Source: Minisyncoccota bacterium (lineage in GTDB: Bacteria; Patescibacteriota; Minisyncoccia; Phycocordibacterales; UBA1006). Taken from it: a stretch of 64,000 nt of DNA. The stretch covers positions 24,665 through 88,664 of the forward strand of contig JALEGN010000007.1 of NCBI GenBank assembly GCA_022763365.1. The letters run 5' to 3'. The notes beneath the pieces are model-generated. The model made no database searches. It was given only the letters and a program-made list of their open reading frames with translations, and had not been told where the DNA came from. Positions 16,927 to 29,261 of this stretch are shown here, piece by piece. Each line of letters opens with the position of its first letter. Position 1 is the stretch's first letter. Position numbers and translations under genes: made by a program.

Positions 16927-19900
16927 TTACCCAACAACAAGGTTAATAATCTTTCCAGGAACATGAATAAATTTTCTAATACTTTTCCCTTCTATCCATT
17001 TTTGTATTTCAGGCAATGCAATAACACGACCTTGGAGTAATTCATTATCTTCATCTTCTTGAACAACAATCTGTGCTCGAACTTTTCCATTAATTTGAAC
17101 TGGAAGAGCCTTTAGATTTGATGAAATTTTTGATTCATCTGCTATTGGAAAAGATTCTGTATGAATTGATGACTTATTATTTTGCATCCATAGATCCTCA
17201 CACATATGTGGTGCAAATGGAGCAAGAATTTGAATTAATAGGTCATAATCTGACCGGGAAATACTCTCAGATTTTTCAGCCTTGTTAACAAAGGTCATCA
17301 TTGATGAAATAGCTGTATTGAGTTTCAGTCGTTGGATATCTTCACCTACTTTCTTAATTGTTTGATGAAGATCTGACTGTAATTCTTCTGGTGTTATATC
17401 GCTAATCTTTTCCTGTAGTCGCCAAACGCGGTCCAAAAATCGACGGACTCCAACAACACCATTTGGATCCCATGGATAATTCCCTGGTTCGTTAAATGGA
17501 CCAATAAAGGCTAGGTACATTCGGACTGTGTCAGCTCCTACGTGCGCTACTACTTCGTCAGGATCAATCACATTTCCTTTTGATTTCGACATCTTTGCTC
17601 CATCTGGACCAAGGATAAGCCCACGATTTAATCGGCCCTTATAAGGTTCATTATCTGGTACATAGCCGAGTTTATGTAATGCCTTTACCCAAAAACGTGA
17701 ATACAAGAGGTGCATGGTGGTATGTTCTGCCCCACCAAAATACATATTAACCGGCATCCATGAATTTAATGATTCACTAGATGCAAATTGTTCATCATTT
17801 TGATTATCAAGATAACGATAGAAATACCATGATGAATCAACAAAGGTATCCATGGTATCTACCTCAGGAGTCCAACCCACGCCAAATATTTTTTCAGTTC
17901 GTTCTTTTAATTCTTTTGATCGAGCTAAAGGTGCCGTTCCATCAGGAGTAAAATCAACATCATCAGGTAATACCCATGGTAAATGTTCTTTTGGAATTGA
18001 ATGTGCATTTCCTTCTGGATCATACACAATTGGAATTGGGCAACCCCAATATCGTTGACGTGAAATTCCCCAATCACGTAAGCGATAGGTTTTAGCCATT
18101 TCACCTCCCACCATTTCAGTAATTATTCTTCGAGCTTCTTCAGAGTTTTTAGTATTTACCTCTTCGTTTCCATTAATAACCTTTCCTTCAAAAGTACAGC
18201 AAAATCGTTTCCCTTCAGGTAATACTCCACCTTGATCGTGGACTTCAGCTAAGAAATCATACATAGCATTCCATTCTGCATTAATCTCTTCCTGACTACC
18301 CTTTTTCTCAGTAACTCCAGCTGATTGAATAAAAGCATTCTCTCCTGAGGTTATAAGTGGTCTTGAGACCCCAGGTTCACCAGCCGATGGCAGACAAACA
18401 AATTTAAATGGTAAATCATATTTAATAGCAAATTCAGCATCCCGCTCATCATGTGCTGGAACTGCCATAACGGCTCCGGTTCCAAAATGTGCTAATACAT
18501 AATCTGCAATCCATACTGTAATAGGTTTTCCTGTTGCGGGATTAATTGCCTCGATACCCTTCAGCTCTACACCAGTTTTTTCTTTTGACTGTTGCCTGTC
18601 GAGATCTGATTTTTTCTCAACTTCTTTTAAATATGTTTCAACCTCATCCCAATTGTTAACTTGAGATTTTAAATTCTGAACCATGTCGTGCTCTGGAGCG
18701 AGAACAAGGTAGGTCGCACCAAATAAAGTATCTGCTCGAGTGGTAAACACTTTTACATCATCAAATTTTTGTATGTTAGCAGAGACAACTCGCCACGGAT
18801 AGCGCATATCCTCACGTTTTAGGAAGTCATTAACCTCAAGTCGTGGGATCCATAAAAAGTCTGCGATAGCTTGTTCTTCAGGGCTTCGTGCTACTTGTTC
18901 TAGGTCTTTTAGTTTTACATGCACAATTCGATAATTTGCGCGTCTGTTTTGTTGTTTAACAACATGCCAAAATAGTCCGTGTGATGATTGGTCATAAACT
19001 TTTATAATTTCTGGATTCTGATATCCGGTTTCCTCTCGAACTTCAGAGAGTGCTGTTTCTTCAATACTCATACCATCCTCAATTCCTCCGGTTACGAATC
19101 CTTGCCAATCTACCTGTTTCCATCTAGCACATAAGAATTCATCTTTTTCAGGATGCTCAATAATAACGACAACGTTATCTCGATCAACAATTTCTTCGCC
19201 TTCACGAAAGGCATCATCACCTGGACCAGTATTAACATCATAGACCTCTGATTCTTGAATCTTAAACGGAATTAATGAACCTTCTTTACGTCCGATCCAT
19301 TCACGTTGAGCGGCCTTAATTGAATGATCCCAATCTAGGTTTTCTAAATCATCATGGAGTTCATCAGCAAAATCAGTAATCTTGAGCATCCATTGCGCCA
19401 TATCTTTTTGTACTACCTCTGCTCCTGATCGCTCTGATCGCCCATTAATGACTTGTTCATTAGCTAGAATTGTTTTATCAACCGGATCCCAGTTTACCTT
19501 TGTAATATCTTTATAAACTAAGTCATTTTTATAAAACTTGATAAACATCCATTGAGTCCATTTGTAGTATTCAGGATCAGATGTCGCCAGCGTCCGCGAC
19601 CAATCAAAACTTGCCCCCATAGAACGTAATTGATTACGCATATAATCCATATTTTCATAGGTCCATTTTCGTGGATCAAGACCTCGCTTAATAGCTGCAT
19701 TTTCAGCAGGTAAACCAAAAGAATCAAAGCCCATTGGATACAGAACATTATATCCACTCATTCGCTTATACCGAGCGTAAATATCAGGTACTGCAAAAGC
19801 ATACCAATGCCCAACATGCAGGTTACCTGACGGGTAGGCAAATTCTGAAAGAGCATAGAAGTTTTCTTTTCCCTCTACCTTATTTTCTACTTTATAAGTA

Positions 19901-19968
19901 TTATTCTCTTCCCAGTATTGTTGCCATTTTTTCTCGATTTCTTGTGGATTGTATTCGTTTTGATTCAT
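16927..19968 (-). CDS. leuS: leucine--tRNA ligase with an inserted Nudix-like domain
   Basis: HVGH (HIGH) motif, KMSKS (AKMSKSKGN), and CP1 editing-domain motifs VFTTRADTLFGATY and GTGAVMAVPAHDERD. The 1013-aa length includes a ~170-aa insert between WIGRKEG and VFTTR that carries a Nudix-like box GGIEDGMSIEETALSEVREETGY. Confidence 0.9.
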   Translation of the reverse strand: MNQNEYNPQEIEKKWQQYWEENNTYKVENKVEGKENFYALSEFAYPSGNLHVGHWYAFAVPDIYARYKRMSGYNVLYPMGFDSFGLPAENAAIKRGLDPRKWTYENMDYMRNQLRSMGASFDWSRTLATSDPEYYKWTQWMFIKFYKNDLVYKDITKVNWDPVDKTILANEQVINGRSERSGAEVVQKDMAQWMLKITDFADELHDDLENLDWDHSIKAAQREWIGRKEGSLIPFKIQESEVYDVNTGPGDDAFREGEEIVDRDNVVVIIEHPEKDEFLCARWKQVDWQGFVTGGIEDGMSIEETALSEVREETGYQNPEIIKVYDQSSHGLFWHVVKQQNRRANYRIVHVKLKDLEQVARSPEEQAIADFLWIPRLEVNDFLKREDMRYPWRVVSANIQKFDDVKVFTTRADTLFGATYLVLAPEHDMVQNLKSQVNNWDEVETYLKEVEKKSDLDRQQSKEKTGVELKGIEAINPATGKPITVWIADYVLAHFGTGAVMAVPAHDERDAEFAIKYDLPFKFVCLPSAGEPGVSRPLITSGENAFIQSAGVTEKKGSQEEINAEWNAMYDFLAEVHDQGGVLPEGKRFCCTFEGKVINGNEEVNTKNSEEARRIITEMVGGEMAKTYRLRDWGISRQRYWGCPIPIVYDPEGNAHSIPKEHLPWVLPDDVDFTPDGTAPLARSKELKERTEKIFGVGWTPEVDTMDTFVDSSWYFYRYLDNQNDEQFASSESLNSWMPVNMYFGGAEHTTMHLLYSRFWVKALHKLGYVPDNEPYKGRLNRGLILGPDGAKMSKSKGNVIDPDEVVAHVGADTVRMYLAFIGPFNEPGNYPWDPNGVVGVRRFLDRVWRLQEKISDITPEELQSDLHQTIKKVGEDIQRLKLNTAISSMMTFVNKAEKSESISRSDYDLLIQILAPFAPHMCEDLWMQNNKSSIHTESFPIADESKISSNLKALPVQINGKVRAQIVVQEDEDNELLQGRVIALPEIQKWIEGKSIRKFIHVPGKIINLVVG

Positions 19969-26757: not shown

Positions 26758-28257
26758 TTACCCAAATATTTTCCCAAAAAATCCCTTTTTCTTAGGCGCT
26801 GGTTGCGCTTGGTAATATTGTTGATTCTGATAGGTATATTGCCCTCCTGAACTATTTTGCTGCGTGTAATCAGTATTCTGAGGTTCAGGTTGTGCCATGC
26901 CAATAGTCTGCGTTTGGTTGTACCTTACAGATTCTTGATCTTGAGGAGTATAATTTTGATCCTGCCCATAAGCCATATTCGATTCGTAGCTATTCTCTAC
27001 TTTTTGTTGTTGAGTATTATTTGCAGAATATATAGCCTGTTCATTAACTTCATGGTTTACCGAAAACCTTTGAGTTTCTAGTGATTGAGGCTTTCTATCA
27101 TTCAAAGTTTCAGGAATTGAAAAAGCATCTTCTTGTTCAGATTCTAGCTCTGAATGTTGATTTATTTTTTCTAAGGGAGCTTCTATCTCCTCGTGATACT
27201 CTTGAATATCAGTATTTGGTATTTTGTGATATTCAGGAAGTGATTGATGATATTCTTGGACTTCTTTTTGAATATTTTCTTCAGTTTTCGATTCTAAACT
27301 GTGAAAATTAACTCCTGTTGATTGAGATAATTCTTCTTGTTCTTTTTTTGTAGAAATAGTTGGTTGAGATTCAGCGACCTGTAATGGTTTTTTATTCTCT
27401 AAATAACGCTCCATCATGTTTTGCTCATGCTCAACTTTTTTCATAGAACTAAGAATTTCTTCAAGATCTTTGATAGTAAAGTAATCAATAGTAATTTGAC
27501 CACCGTTTTCCTTTGGTTCGATATGGACGCGTGTTCCAAGATTTTCAGAAAGTTTTTTCTCGAAATCTCTGATTCGTGGATCAATTTTAAATTCTTTTTT
27601 ACGAACCTTATCTTGGGCAATATTTCGAGCCACCTTTTCGGCATCACGAACAGACATTTTCTTGACCATGATTTCTTTGTATAAGGTAGTTTGTTCTTCT
27701 GGTCTATCTGAGAGCATCAACAGTGGTCTCGTGTGACCCTCTGTAATCCGACCAGCCATCAAACCTTGTTTAATTTCTTCAGGTAGTGAAAGAAGTCTTA
27801 GTGTGTTTGAAACATATACACGACTCTTTCCCATACGTTTTCCGATTTCAACATGAGTTAAATTGAACTCTTTGTAGAGCTGTTCAAAAGCAAGAGCTCG
27901 ATCAATAGGATTAAGGTCTTCCCGTTGCAGGTTTTCAATAATTGCTAACTCAAGTTTTACCTTATCATCAGTTTCTTTTCTAATGATCACTGGAACCTGA
28001 GCAAGCCCAGCAATTTTAGATGCGCGCAAGCGTCGTTCCCCAGCAATCAATTCATAATGAACATCCATTCCATGATTATCAGGACGTAGTGTTTCTTTAC
28101 GAGTTACCACGAGTGGTTGCAGTACTCCATATTGCCTGATTGAATCAGCTAAATCCTCTAAAGCTTTAGGTTCAAATTCTTTTCGCGGCTGAAAAGGATT
28201 TGGTTTAATCTTCATTGTTTCGACCCAAAAAATAGAATTGTTCTGGTATTCTGACAT
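26758..28257 (-). CDS. parB: ParB/Spo0J-family protein with a long Q/N/Y-rich low-complexity C-terminal extension
   Basis: ParB N-domain (KPNPFQPRKEF, YELIAGERRLRASKIAG) plus HTH. The region from about aa 285 to 499 is compositionally biased (Q, N, Y, E, S, T) with QEYH repeats and ends in KKKGFFGKIFG. Confidence 0.75.
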   Translation of the reverse strand: MSEYQNNSIFWVETMKIKPNPFQPRKEFEPKALEDLADSIRQYGVLQPLVVTRKETLRPDNHGMDVHYELIAGERRLRASKIAGLAQVPVIIRKETDDKVKLELAIIENLQREDLNPIDRALAFEQLYKEFNLTHVEIGKRMGKSRVYVSNTLRLLSLPEEIKQGLMAGRITEGHTRPLLMLSDRPEEQTTLYKEIMVKKMSVRDAEKVARNIAQDKVRKKEFKIDPRIRDFEKKLSENLGTRVHIEPKENGGQITIDYFTIKDLEEILSSMKKVEHEQNMMERYLENKKPLQVAESQPTISTKKEQEELSQSTGVNFHSLESKTEENIQKEVQEYHQSLPEYHKIPNTDIQEYHEEIEAPLEKINQHSELESEQEDAFSIPETLNDRKPQSLETQRFSVNHEVNEQAIYSANNTQQQKVENSYESNMAYGQDQNYTPQDQESVRYNQTQTIGMAQPEPQNTDYTQQNSSGGQYTYQNQQYYQAQPAPKKKGFFGKIFG

Positions 28258-28481
28258 AATTATTTCAATTATATCACAGTCATTTTTCTTCTAAAACTTG
28301 CAGGAAAAAACCCTTTTTAGTACTATCAAGTGGTTGATAGAAATCAATTAATATTTGCCGGAGTGTGCGACCTAAAAACGAATGAACGTAGTGAATATCG
28401 TTTTGAAAGTGCTCTTGTAGTAGAATTGGTAGGTGAGACAATCCTGCGAATTGTACAGCGGCGACTCTTTAAAAACAAAGT

Positions 28482-28563
28482 GCTGGAGTGGCGGAATTGG
28501 TAGACGCGTGCGACTCAAAATCGCATATCTACGGGTGTGCGGGTTCGATTCCCGCCTCCAGCA
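28482..28563 (+). tRNA. tRNA-Leu (anticodon CAA), type II
   Basis: Acceptor GCTGGAG/CTCCAGC, anticodon stem TGCGA/TCGCA with loop CTCAAAA (CAA), long variable arm, T arm GCGGG-TTCGATT-CCCGC, discriminator A. Confidence 0.85.
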
Positions 28564-28650
28564 CTTTGTTTTTAAAACTAAAATCGCACTACAAGAGTAT
28601 TTCCATTTTATATTCGCAGAAGCTCATTAAAAATTAGGTCACAGCTCTTC

Positions 28651-28681
28651 GGGCGTGCGGGTTCAAGTCCCGCCTCCGGCA
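28651..28681 (+). pseudogene. tRNA 3' fragment (T arm + acceptor 3' strand + discriminator) without a 5' half
   Basis: GCGGG-TTCAAGT-CCCGC-CTCCGGC-A is a complete T arm plus 3' acceptor strand. The matching 5' strand GCCGGAG occurs only at 28357, upstream of tRNA-Leu(CAA). Confidence 0.4.
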
Positions 28682-28880
28682 CATAGCGGGACAAGGTTAA
28701 ACTTTGTACGGTTTTTGTCCGAATGAATAATTTTGCTTGGTAAAGTTAGACCTGTGTCCCTATTACGGGCACAATTACAATGCACACTAAAAATGTGTAT
28801 TTTCGTTTGAGGAAATATACATCACATGAGATACTGTAATTGATAAACATTGCTACATGTTTACATAATCATTTAATTAT

Positions 28881-29261
28881 ATGGAAGAAATTTTAAGTTT
28901 ACTTTATTTTGTTATTGCAATTATTATTATTGCGTCAATGTGGAAAGTTTTTACCAAAGCAGGACGTCCTGGTTGGGAAGCAATTATCCCAATCTACAAC
29001 CTTTATATTATTCAAAAATTAATTAAAAAACCTTGGTGGTGGATTCTCCTGATGTTCATTCCGTGGCTTGGACTTATTTGGACTATTTGGTCAACAAATT
29101 TACTTGCAAAAAGTTTTGGTAAAACTGAAGGATTCACAGCTGGTATGATTCTATTACCTTTTGTATTCTATCCCATCTTAGGGTTTGGTAATGCACGGTA
29201 TACAGAACCACAATCAAATTCTCATGAATCAATATTAGAAGCTGAAATTATTGAAGAATAA
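28881..29261 (+). CDS. small polytopic membrane protein (DUF5684-like)
   Basis: KAGRPGWEAIIPIYN...KKPWWWILL...GFGNARY pattern recalled for DUF5684 proteins. Confidence 0.45.
   Translation: MEEILSLLYFVIAIIIIASMWKVFTKAGRPGWEAIIPIYNLYIIQKLIKKPWWWILLMFIPWLGLIWTIWSTNLLAKSFGKTEGFTAGMILLPFVFYPILGFGNARYTEPQSNSHESILEAEIIEE

Follow-up and report, generated by a model that had tools for sequence, protein, structure and literature searches.

On sequence comparison, one intergenic region in a 64,000-nucleotide window of DNA from a Minisyncoccota bacterium is built of three nested layers of tRNA-Leu: an outer relic encloses a middle relic, which encloses an intact tRNA. The layout is rare and resembles what mobile DNA would leave behind after delivering a replacement tRNA. 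We consider it fairly probable that nested insertion into the single chromosomal copy of tRNA-Leu(CAA) left this scar, and that the insert twice supplied a replacement tRNA of the same isotype. The working gene would then lie inside the broken halves of two older copies because an insert in the anticodon arm brought a complete tRNA-Leu(CAA). The original prediction had offered two readings, a decayed or rearranged tRNA-Leu around an intact gene or a recombination or integration scar, and this analysis agrees with both. The features of the region are collected in Table 1.

Table 1. Features of the tRNA-Leu(CAA) region in window coordinates
Feature	Positions	Strand	Sequence, repeats and basis
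Promoter-like site for parB	28268..28295	-	TTTAGA-16-TG-TATAAT; consensus scan; back to back with the putative tRNA promoter
Promoter-like site for the tRNA-Leu transcript	28298..28326	+	TTGCAG, 17 nt, TACTAT; start inferred near 28333
Outer relic, 5' piece	28357..28377	+	GCCGGAG, TG, TGCGA, loop-like CCTAAAA; repeats D5, D11, I8, I19
Spacer between outer and middle relics	28378..28405	+	GTGAATAT (28391-28398) can pair with ATATTCGC (28610-28617); MFE fold and sequence
Middle relic, 5' half	28406..28467	+	AAAGT, GCTCTTG, TA, D-arm-like GTAGAATTGGTAGG (28420-28433), TGAG, 17-nt hairpin, ACAGCG-GCGA-CTC; direct repeat D2 with the leader and 5' part of the intact tRNA
Hairpin in the D-arm region of the middle relic	28438..28454	+	ACAAT-CCTGCGA-ATTGT; alignment with L001
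Leader-trailer helix, 5' arm	28468..28481	+	TTTAAAAACAAAGT; inverted repeat I1
Intact tRNA-Leu(CAA), presumed working gene	28482..28563	+	ARAGORN 28482-28564; Rfam RF00005 28482-28563
Leader-trailer helix, 3' arm	28564..28576	+	CTTTGTTTTTAAA; A73 pairs with T at position -1
Middle relic, 3' part	28577..28597	+	ACT-AAAA-TCGCA-CTACAAGAG; inverted repeat I2; variable and T arms missing
Spacer	28598..28633	+	ends in CTCATTAAAAA, direct repeat (D10) of CTCTTTAAAAA at 28465-28475
Outer relic, 3' half	28634..28681 (tRNA part 28639-28681)	+	TTAGG, TCACA, variable arm GCTCTTCGGGCG, T arm TGCGGGTTCAAGTCCCGC, CTCCGGC, A73; D1, I8, I19
Extra 98 nt	28683..28780	+	missing in the closest simple-state relatives; sequence comparison
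Weak hairpin and ATTTTCGTTT	28780..28810	+	about where relatives have an intrinsic terminator; by-eye comparison with L023/L022

The intact tRNA and the relics around it

ARAGORN and Rfam agreed on the predicted intact tRNA-Leu(CAA), with an RF00005 score of 61.4 bits against a gathering score of 29. This copy is a class II tRNA with A73 as its discriminator and a long variable arm, and CCA is not encoded; it was the sole cloverleaf at the locus accepted by the tRNA finders. Its acceptor stem, GCTGGAG/CTCCAGC, carries U-A at pair 3:70, compared with C-G in all relatives. The nearest allele was that of L053, with 4 differences, compared with 9 from the allele common to the loci closest by ParB (L014/L022/L023) and 11 from L024. 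The start of its trailer, CTTTGTTTTTAA, also follows the tRNA in the simple-state locus L004. These allele distances and the matching trailer suggest that the working copy is foreign or distinct in origin. A search for tmRNA with ARAGORN and Rfam returned a sole tmRNA_permuted match of 13.3 bits on the T arm, which was not accepted as a tmRNA.

The flanks of the intact tRNA extend its acceptor stem, as had been predicted. Inverted repeat I1 (28468-28488 with 28556-28576) is 100% complementary over 21 nt with the acceptor stem included, and the leader-trailer duplex itself comprises 14 bp. The predicted length of about 24 bp was too great, as the four positions beyond these 21 bp are unpaired. 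When 28258-28880 was shuffled by mononucleotides 300 times, no perfect inverted repeat exceeded 14 nt. The number of contiguous extension pairs was 14 in the window versus 0-2 in sixteen related single-copy (simple-state) tRNA-Leu(CAA) genes, and the remaining four tRNAs of the window had no such stem extension. In L001, a separately assembled MAG, the extension contains 14 Watson-Crick pairs and one G-U pair out of 16. Thus, by the shuffles and the simple-state loci, the extended helix is real and specific to the rearranged state. Shuffling of the leader arm gave a predicted acceptor-stem probability of 0.81-0.91, compared with 0.91 for the wild type, under an energy model that folds no cloverleaf. 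The helix most likely represents a putative processing or folding stem, such as a site cut by an RNase III-type enzyme before RNase P and 3' trimming act.

In the outer relic, GCCGGAG is followed directly by the anticodon-arm-like sequence that had been described, in the form TG-TGCGA-CCTAAAA, and exactly the 18-nt D arm is missing between TG and TGCGA. The position and leader of this 5' piece are homologous to those of the simple-state genes of L022 and other loci, and the ancestral distance is kept. Its downstream counterpart, previously taken for a T arm with the 3' acceptor strand and discriminator, is longer than that and comprises a whole tRNA 3' half: from the 3' strand of the anticodon stem through the discriminator (28639-28682), it is 82% identical to the 3' half of the intact tRNA. 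It differs from the 3' halves of L010 and L014/L022/L023 at 3-4 of 43 nt, and on reading of the sequences its T arm and acceptor strand are identical to those alleles. The two pieces remain complementary, with GCCGGAG matched at 28674-28680, TTAGG matched by CCTAA at 28371-28375, and a junction helix, TGCGACCTAA/TTAGGTCACA (I19), that is continuous save for one mismatch. The claim that GCCGGAG occurs only at 28357 holds within the intergenic region, but not across the window, where 6 matches were found on both strands versus 1.3 expected.

Reading CCTAAAA as a UAA anticodon proved wrong, since the corresponding loop of the relatives is CTCAAAA, with anticodon CAA. Judged against these related sequences, CCTAAAA is a mutated relic of the CTCAAAA loop, and the outer pair is the ancestral tRNA-Leu(CAA) at its ancestral position rather than a second tRNA-Leu(UAA). 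The outer gene is split in the anticodon arm by a non-coding, tRNA-derived insert of about 260 nt. Its frame (28357-28377 with 28639-28681) has no D arm, the insert stands in place of the anticodon loop, and ARAGORN makes no call. The exact junctions are ambiguous by a few nucleotides, and the outer 5' piece may retain the whole loop and some of the 3' stem strand.

The middle relic has its own two parts. A D-arm-like segment had been predicted as a piece of the outer pair; the segment exists, but it belongs to the 5' half of the middle relic, where AAAGT-GCTCTTG-TA-GTAGAATTGGTAG (28406-28432) is 78% identical to 28477-28503. GCTCTTG corresponds to GCTGGAG in L001, and ACAGCG-GCGA-CTC represents the 5' strand of the anticodon stem and the first three loop bases. 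On the other side, ACT-AAAA-TCGCA represents the 3' part of the anticodon loop and the 3' strand of its stem, and CTACAAGAG pairs with CTCTTGTAG at 28412-28420. The middle relic is split between CTC and AAAA, that is, between anticodon positions 34 and 35, by a complete tRNA-Leu(CAA) cassette. Because the D-arm-like piece has its own partner at 28577-28597, the locus contains three layers and not a single shuffled gene.

Inverted repeats I8, I19, I2 and I1 are strictly nested, and direct repeats D1, D2, D5 and D11 link the pieces to parts of the tRNA. As opposite strands of what were once acceptor and anticodon stems, the halves of each relic pair with one another, which results in a nested rod; folding of the whole region, as had been proposed, gave one such rod across 28340-28700 (z = -7.75 versus shuffles). 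All four junctions carry loop-like sequences of the form CyyAAAA or CTCwTTAAAA (CCTAAAA, CTCATTAAAAA, CTCTTTAAAAA and CTAAAA), which are AT-rich and mutated. CTCATTAAAAA and CTCTTTAAAAA look like junction sequences derived from the anticodon loop.

Simple and nested alleles

When the locus was compared with about 25 related Patescibacteria loci or lineages, these carried a single tRNA-Leu(CAA) at the same position (GCCGGAG...CTCCGGCA, anticodon loop CTCAAAA). This simple state consists of a conserved promoter adjoining parB, one tRNA-Leu(CAA) and a terminator. These include the three closest relatives by ParB; all further loci reached through 11 contigs of ParB relatives and through ORF match P0121 were in the simple state, and the anticodon of the ancestral gene is CAA in the related loci examined. 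In L053, the tRNA cassette is inverted. Thus, relatives show a simple tRNA gene and not an unrelated conserved ncRNA, the outcome that would have spoken against the original prediction. Protein searches with ORFs translated across the complex returned one distant simple-state locus and no other match, and a metagenome pattern scan with the middle-relic signature GAATTGGTAGNTGAGN{4,6}CCTGCGAA gave 0 matches. Only two nested alleles are known, those of the window and L001.

Upstream, the TGTGATATAAT block of the parB promoter-like site is kept in aligned relatives. A second block, TTGCA ... TTTTAGTAsTAT, is also kept upstream of the tRNA in the aligned relatives, although L006/L028 show it less clearly; in simple-state relatives its distance from the tRNA is 8-50 nt. 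This site, the putative promoter of the tRNA-Leu transcript, was missed by the consensus scan because its -35 hexamer has 3/6 matches. Transcription of the whole array probably starts from this conserved promoter, which precedes the outer relic by about 25 nt, and the tRNA would therefore have to be cut from a leader of about 150 nt. Downstream, the extra 98 nt contain two hairpins, GGGACAA...TTGTCC and TGTGTCCC...GGGCACA, and begin with GCGGGAC, the reverse complement of the 3' strand of the T stem. By weak resemblance, this stretch may be a degenerate copy of element X, which other lineages have behind tRNA-Leu; aligning element X with 28683-28790 and folding their consensus established no relationship. 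The weak hairpin beyond it was not reported by a terminator scan.

The complex in L001 is homologous to that in the window, with 78% mean column identity, and its fold is also non-random (z = -6.03). The junction flanks are the same, GACTC preceding and AyTAAAATCGCAC following the helix-tRNA-helix unit. The outer frame is almost gone in L001 and the inner tRNA is perfect. Pairing in the stems of the inner tRNA (helices 3-7) is kept via double changes, and in the middle helix GTAG/CTAC in the window versus GTGG/CCAC in L001 represents a compensatory change; TAAAATCGCAC-ACAA of the middle 3' part is kept. L001 has a working tRNA that matches the ordinary allele of L003/L027/L028 at every position, and therefore gene conversion or a native donor is required. 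By ParB and aaRS identities, the two hosts are not sister lineages. The nested alleles could have a single origin spread by recombination or could reflect two insertions.

The comparison with L001 also bears on what the structure does at present. The leader and trailer, derived from tRNA, may have been exapted as a functional structured precursor kept by selection, a possibility that we entertain tentatively. In such a scaffold, a rod tipped by the tRNA, the conserved hairpin and the leader-trailer stem would control how tRNA-Leu(CAA) is processed, stabilised or expressed. Its descent from relics would be history and not present function, and the idea is compatible with an insertion scar. Consistent with exaptation, both folds are strongly non-random, the extension helix is found in the nested alleles only, and 94% of cells were paired between the window and L001, with 11 pairs changed on both sides (of these, the leader-trailer extension accounts for 3 and the hairpin and the middle helix for 2 each); these values were equalled in 1/500 shuffles and slid controls gave 0-2, in a test of two sequences with a structure derived from one of them. 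By hand count from the alignment, the middle 5' half is identical at 45/62 positions (about 73%), compared with about 40% in the adjacent leader; it is better conserved than its neutral neighbours, which suggests that it is more than debris. Within it, the hairpin loop and flanks (AATCCTGCGAATT) are identical at 13/13 positions, and the stem covaries (GGTAAT/ATTACC in L001), with 2/6 pairs changed on both sides and pairing kept. However, L001 lacks the outer helices and four pairs of the middle helix are broken there. The AT-rich helix arms may not be homologous between the two alleles, since their identity of 9/14 is near chance at such base composition. Templated mutation, in the form of intrastrand template switching at quasi-palindromes, could preserve inverted repeats without RNA function, and about 23 lineages manage without the structure.

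Origin of the nested arrangement

Under the nested-insertion reading, each layer would have formed by entry of foreign DNA into the anticodon loop of whichever gene was functional at the time; that gene would not have been rebuilt, and a carried tRNA of the same isotype would have taken over, a takeover that would parallel the tRNA-dependent lysogeny of actinobacteriophages. Reductive decay would then have stripped away all but the tRNA on which the cell depended. Since the anticodon arm is the same in the replacement tRNA, that tRNA would become the next target, which would explain the recursion.

Searches for the source of such DNA were negative. In agreement with the earlier remark that no integrase is nearby, Pfam scans of ORFs from 11.7 to 43 kb detected only housekeeping genes, with no integrase, transposase or phage gene within about 15 kb. 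The insert holds no ORF of note, and a tyrosine integrase and prophage genes are absent from it, so any lysogeny at this locus would survive as a decayed relic only. Exact-pattern scans of IMG/VR for the inner tRNA and the insert returned nothing relevant and no intact donor element. Scans of viral contigs with the hairpin motif, a GCTGGAG-type tRNA, the tRNA 3' end, the anticodon arm and element X as queries gave one chance antisense match in a phage tRNA array (L026) and 19 chance matches in GC-rich coding DNA.

A protein-free origin was also considered. In our estimation, the insert is unlikely to be a miniature mobile cassette, alive now or until recently, that homes, without proteins of its own, into its own isoacceptor gene at the anticodon loop. 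Such a cassette would consist of a tRNA-Leu(CAA) clamped by the leader-trailer helix and flanked by tRNA-half sequences. Naturally transformed DNA could recombine through the halves as homology arms, or the folded hairpin could be the substrate of a recombinase from the host or a helper; the cassette would replace the resident gene and then become the next target. If true, this would be a selfish gene-replacement element made only of a tRNA, and it would account for the recursion, the patchy spread in non-sister lineages and the maintained helices.

Classical att-site scars were judged quite unlikely. Here, elements restoring the 3' part of the tRNA would have integrated repeatedly in the anticodon loop (the P4-type sublocation), displaced 3' fragments would have been left downstream of a rebuilt tRNA, and the elements would later have been deleted. 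The general mechanism is documented in the Islander database paper (PMC4383910). Both 3' fragments start at the anticodon loop or stem, and the outer one reaches the very 3' end, as attR fragments do. Further, in L005, L011 and L021 the tRNA 3' end recurs downstream of the same tRNA in att-like direct repeats, and the tRNA-Leu gene is therefore a recombination hotspot. However, the model yields no 5' fragments, and the two upstream 5' pieces at this locus are strictly nested with their 3' partners. Acceptor complementarity and position already largely show that the 5' and 3' pieces flanking the insert share ancestry, which speaks against this model. Nor was the native 5' half reused, as GCCGGAG remains upstream and the working gene begins with GCTGGAG, and the ORFs from 11.7 to 43 kb contain no integrase.

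The window derives from a metagenome-assembled genome and tRNA genes are repeat-like, so strain variants might have been mis-joined at a repeated tRNA sequence. This explanation is very improbable, given a homologous, diverged complex in the independent assembly L001 and layers that differ by many substitutions, deletions and compensatory changes and are not chimeric copies.

It is hardly credible that the outer frame is a functional tRNA-Leu(UAA or CAA) gene whose 260-nt insert is a group I intron or another intron, self-splicing or removed by enzymes. Patescibacteria tRNAs often carry group I introns in the anticodon loop, and position 34/35 is the classical site in tRNA-Leu (PMC13011429); the insert lies in the anticodon arm and within the length range of introns. 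However, with relaxed filters and E <= 10, Rfam detected only tRNA in 28150-28950, with no Intron_gpI, ribozyme, tmRNA or known sRNA, and the insert is wholly explained by tRNA-derived segments. The outer frame has no D arm and a C-A mismatch in its anticodon stem, no U|...G| splice restores a 7-nt outer loop, and the frame is nearly lost in L001, where the inner tRNA is perfect.

Repeated duplication in tandem of the 5' and 3' halves was rejected, as four events would all have to end in one loop and the layer leaders are not copies of the native leader, and Campbell-type integration of a tRNA-bearing circle would give tandem rather than nested genes.

Given the minimal tRNA sets of CPR bacteria, a single-copy tRNA gene is both essential and a favoured landing site for mobile DNA. 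The nested insertion scar, as read here, would mean that an essential tRNA gene can twice be destroyed and have its function taken over from within, with the events preserved in layers. The locus also offers a test case for release of a tRNA from a long, structured, tRNA-like leader in a bacterium with a reduced RNase repertoire. For annotation, nested relics of this kind can mislead through pseudo-halves, a false UAA reading and false intron calls.

Comparison with known systems

RNase III processing stems flank the rRNAs in bacterial precursors. The locus resembles them in its long, perfect leader-trailer duplex around a mature RNA, a duplex whose role is putative here. Such stems are not known to be a regular feature of single bacterial tRNA genes.

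Split and permuted tRNAs depend on the archaeal or eukaryal splicing endonuclease, which joins their halves at bulge-helix-bulge motifs and so yields the only functional copy. Such disrupted genes, whether split, tri-split or permuted, occur in archaea and red algae and have been reviewed (PMC4390854). As in these genes, the halves at this locus lie apart in the DNA and complementary flanks could unite them as RNA; unlike them, the locus is bacterial, the halves are decayed and a complete gene lies between them.

Williams reportedly distinguished anticodon-loop and T-loop integration sublocations in 2002. Genomic islands and prophages integrated in tRNA genes have ends marked by displaced tRNA fragments (Islander database, PMC4383910). 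As at this locus, fragments from the loop to the 3' end lie downstream of an intact tRNA, and the anticodon loop with its symmetric stem is a typical crossover site. In canonical islands, the gene is regenerated from the host 5' half and an element 3' part, and only 3' fragments are left. Unlike them, both old halves remain here and flank a complete new gene with its own 5' half.

Group I introns in the tRNA anticodon loops of Patescibacteria, described as frequent by Nakagawa et al. (2026; PMC13011429), share with the insert the phylum, the kind of target and a similar size, and like it they have no ORF. In contrast to these introns, the insert has neither a group I fold nor splice-site logic and is tRNA sequence containing a tRNA, and the interrupted outer gene is not restorable because its D arm is absent.

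In tRNA-dependent lysogeny, described for mycobacteriophage Fionnbharth and others (Guerrero-Bustamante & Hatfull 2024; PMC10865867), the host tRNA is split over a core of about 10 bp and the element supplies a tRNA whose isotype matches. The gene is not rebuilt because the two sides share just a short core. Since no donor element was found for the locus described here, a link to this process is one that we infer. The insert differs from those prophages in that it is only about 260 nt, with no nearby integrase, repressor or phage genes, and the locus differs in its two nested events, its CPR host and a split in the anticodon arm. As in tRNA-dependent lysogeny, however, insertion splits an essential single-copy host tRNA gene, the host tRNA is remade at neither junction, and a tRNA-Leu(CAA) of the same isotype lies inside the insert. 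If this reading is true, the phenomenon reaches CPR bacteria, beyond the phages of Actinobacteria, and the locus shows its end state after genome reduction.

Nested tRNA-Leu fragments between parB and the DUF5684 gene

The window comes from the chromosome of a Patescibacteria (CPR) bacterium, where housekeeping genes (pyrG, a Band-7 protein gene, relA/spoT, parB, DUF5684, DUF975, a class II aaRS, LeuRS and greA) surround the locus; the ParB encoded here matches, at 100% identity, a protein from a "Candidatus Pacebacteria" MAG. In the 623 non-coding bases separating parB from the DUF5684 gene, ARAGORN and Rfam detected a sole tRNA, tRNA-Leu(CAA) at 28482-28563. A repeat search identified four inverted repeats, strictly nested around this tRNA, together with direct repeats of its parts. 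The longest perfect inverted repeat in 300 shuffles of the region was 14 nt, and 21 nt was reached in 0/300. The predicted fold of 28340-28700 was a single rod (z = -7.75) whose tip is the tRNA.

Coordinates of features, within the window unless a related locus (L number) is named
Feature	Location	Strand	Details
parB	26758-28257	minus	
DUF5684 gene	28881-29261		
Inverted repeat, outermost	28352-28363 / 28674-28685		repeat search
Inverted repeat, second	28366-28375 / 28634-28643		repeat search
Inverted repeat, third	28404-28421 / 28588-28605		repeat search
Inverted repeat, innermost	28468-28488 / 28556-28576		21 nt, perfect; repeat search
Direct repeat	28639-28682		whole 3' half of tRNA, 82%
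Direct repeat	28406-28432		leader, acceptor and D loop, 78%
Direct repeat	28365-28383		anticodon arm
Direct repeat	28356-28365		acceptor 5' strand
Middle relic, 5' half	28406-28467		AAAGT-GCTCTTG-TA-GTAGAATTGGTAGG, then 17-nt hairpin 28438-28454, then GCG-GCGA-CTC
Middle relic, 3' part	28577-28597		ACT-AAAA-TCGCA-CTACAAGAG
Element X	L005 2545-2692; L011 90-237		
Element X	L006 3595-3757; L021 1147-1279; L008 713-850	minus	
Element X	L030		cut by contig end

On sequence comparison, the outer fragment pair is the ancestral tRNA-Leu(CAA) gene, broken in the anticodon arm, because GCCGGAG at 28357 keeps the ancestral spacing from the homologous leader upstream of it and the outer 3' half, closed by CTCCGGCA at 28674-28681, has only 3-4/43 differences from the 3' halves of the related loci L010 and L014/L022/L023. 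Its T arm and acceptor, compared by eye, are identical to those alleles. The outer relic lacks exactly the 18-nt D arm (GCCGGAG-TG|TGCGA).

The outer halves enclose another broken tRNA gene, the middle relic, in which GCGA-CTC|...|AAAA-TCGCA is a tRNA-Leu(CAA) anticodon arm severed between positions 34 and 35. The gap holds the intact tRNA, a 14-nt leader arm and the complementary trailer. The intact tRNA has the pair U3-A70, which is C-G in all relatives. Against the alleles of the ParB-closest relatives (L014/L022/L023, L024) it shows 9-11 differences, against the L053 allele only 4, and the start of its trailer, CTTTGTTTTTAA, is shared with L004. The intact tRNA is therefore no plain duplicate of the resident gene.

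The tRNA calls and repeat search confirmed the original prediction of a tRNA-Leu with flanking fragments and an inverted repeat, and its interpretation as a decayed tRNA-Leu gene around an intact one, and as a recombination scar, was upheld. Three details were not: the supposed UAA anticodon of the outer relic, CCTAAAA, is a mutated CTCAAAA, the relatives all being CAA; the D-arm-like piece assigned to the outer pair belongs to the middle relic 5' half; and the helix of roughly 24 bp corresponds to a perfect repeat of 21 nt.

Other features of the neighbourhood were observed. The ParB C-terminal part (26758-27400, minus) is a long low-complexity extension rich in Q/Y/N/E (e.g., YQNQQYYQ); among close relatives ParB length is 323-682 aa, and the N-terminal ~290 residues stay 85-93% identical. 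The palindrome TAAACAT-TGCTAC-ATGTTTA (28844-28863) overlaps a promoter-like site of the DUF5684 gene (28840-28869) and may be an operator or promoter element. It is conserved on this gene's 5' side in L003 and L023, and L022 and L027 carry a variant of it there. In L024/L025 (~830-1200) this gene has no ATG at the homologous start, contains in-frame stops with only a 31-aa ORF called, and is probably a pseudogene in that lineage. In the 1013-aa leucyl-tRNA synthetase (16927-19968, minus), a NUDIX domain (residues 263-385, E = 3.7e-10) separates the catalytic core from the editing domain.

The simple state and a second nested allele

ParB relatives were drawn from GTDB genomes, JGI metagenomes and the assemblies behind the protein database. 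Among ~25 distinct lineages with the same neighbourhood, all but one had a single tRNA-Leu(CAA); these include the three lineages nearest in ParB, 91-92% identical across its N-terminal 290 residues. In this simple state the acceptor GCCGGAG/CTCCGGC is invariant and the anticodon arm is TGCGA-CTCAAAA-TCGCA, or TACGA...TCGTA in the L013/L030/L055 allele. A promoter-like block (TTGCA, 17 nt, TAsTAT) is conserved, with the tRNA beginning 8-50 nt 3' of it; most of the loci have a hairpin terminator directly after the tRNA. In L053 (978-1060), L005 (2428-2512) and L011 (1-54), tRNA-Leu(CAA) is on the parB strand or displaced from parB, being divergent elsewhere; in L053 the gene is turned around together with the promoter-like block. 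This is a rearrangement-prone locus.

A homologous complex was found in one GTDB MAG (L001, CALBVO010000053), and this independent occurrence excludes an assembly artefact. L001 shares the middle 5' half (AAAGT-GCTGGAG-TG-GCTGAATTGGTAGC-TGAG-hairpin-...GTGA-CTC) and the 3' junction (ATT-AAAA-TCGCA-CCACAA), and a 16-bp leader-trailer helix encloses its intact tRNA. Its outer layer is more decayed (GCCTGGA... upstream, AAAAAAATCACAG downstream). In a MAFFT alignment of the two loci, 94% of cells were paired and 11 pairs were changed on both sides, including 3 in the leader-trailer extension, 2 in the hairpin stem and 2 in the middle helix; the count in slid controls was 0-2. The hairpin stem is ACAAT/ATTGT in the window and GGTAAT/ATTACC in L001, with the loop CCTGCGA unchanged. 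Because two sequences were compared and the structure came from one of the pair, this covariation is suggestive rather than proof. The extension helix was absent from 16 simple-state lineages (0-2 contiguous pairs).

ParB and aaRS identities do not make sister lineages of the window and L001, and each has closer simple-state relatives. Near the locus it is L001 that most resembles the window (86% in the promoter, 88% over parB's first 150 nt), the ParB-closest relatives having 70-85% identity to it there; further into parB this order reverses and L001 is no longer closest. This reversal hints that the nested allele moved by recombination. Its history could be either one origin with transfer or two insertions.

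A conserved element downstream of tRNA-Leu(CAA)

A non-coding element of ~120-190 nt, termed X, is conserved 3' of tRNA-Leu(CAA) in several related lineages, and 28683-28780 of the window is possibly a copy. X begins with the T loop and T stem of the same genome in reverse complement, as GTGGGACTTG, GGGAGTTG or GGGAATT, and ends with a repeat of the tRNA's own 3' end (CAAGyCCCACCTCCGGCA); the core holds ...AAAAGnCGCAGG...CCGAG..GGGGTCGCG... plus a variable hairpin. Just upstream there is an acceptor-like 5' strand, which is GACGGAG, GGTGGAG or GCCCAAG, so that X looks like a tRNA-like frame with a T-loop insert. The closing stem and 3' hairpin show some compensatory changes, and X had no Rfam match at gathering thresholds or at E <= 10. 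X might be an undescribed tRNA-like ncRNA, or else an att-type scar left by a small integrative element. In L021, a more distant relative (~1147-1413, minus), an exact 18-nt direct repeat of the tRNA-Leu(CAA) 3' end (CAACTCCCACCTCGGGCA) occurs ~170 nt downstream, and this att-like duplication brackets X.

Origin of the nested state

We propose that an insertion split the tRNA gene and brought a same-isotype tRNA that took over its function, after which decay would have stripped all but the now essential tRNA. Because the replacement would keep the same anticodon arm, it could become the next target, giving nested layers. Loop-like motifs persist at all four junctions (CCTAAAA, CTCATTAAAAA, CTCTTTAAAAA, CTAAAA); they are consistent with a short common core and too degenerate to serve as proof. 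This mechanism is put forward as a hypothesis, since no integrase lies within ~15 kb of the locus and scans of IMG/VR found no donor element. One IMG/VR phage contig (L026, 5652-7748) carries a nine-tRNA array; it is unrelated, with a chance antisense match to the hairpin motif.

A transcript from the conserved promoter would have to carry a ~150-nt structured leader, and the leader-trailer helix is best explained as a putative processing or folding stem. Alternatively, templated mutation at quasi-palindromes could account for the helix by keeping its arms paired. A classical island scar alone was rejected, as under that model the host 5' half is reused and no fragments other than 3' ones are left. 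Patescibacteria carry group I introns in tRNA anticodon loops, 34/35 being the classical tRNA-Leu site (PMC13011429); the intron reading was rejected because Rfam gave no group I or other ribozyme match in the locus region, even at E <= 10, the insert is built of tRNA pieces and the outer frame is unable to yield a tRNA. ARAGORN and Rfam led to rejection of a tmRNA.

The use of tRNA genes as insertion targets, their loss complemented by an insert-borne tRNA, is of a known kind. In tRNA-dependent lysogeny (PMC10865867) a split host tRNA is replaced by a same-isotype tRNA that the insert carries, as is proposed here; what is unusual in this locus is the recursion, the minimal size and the maintained structure.
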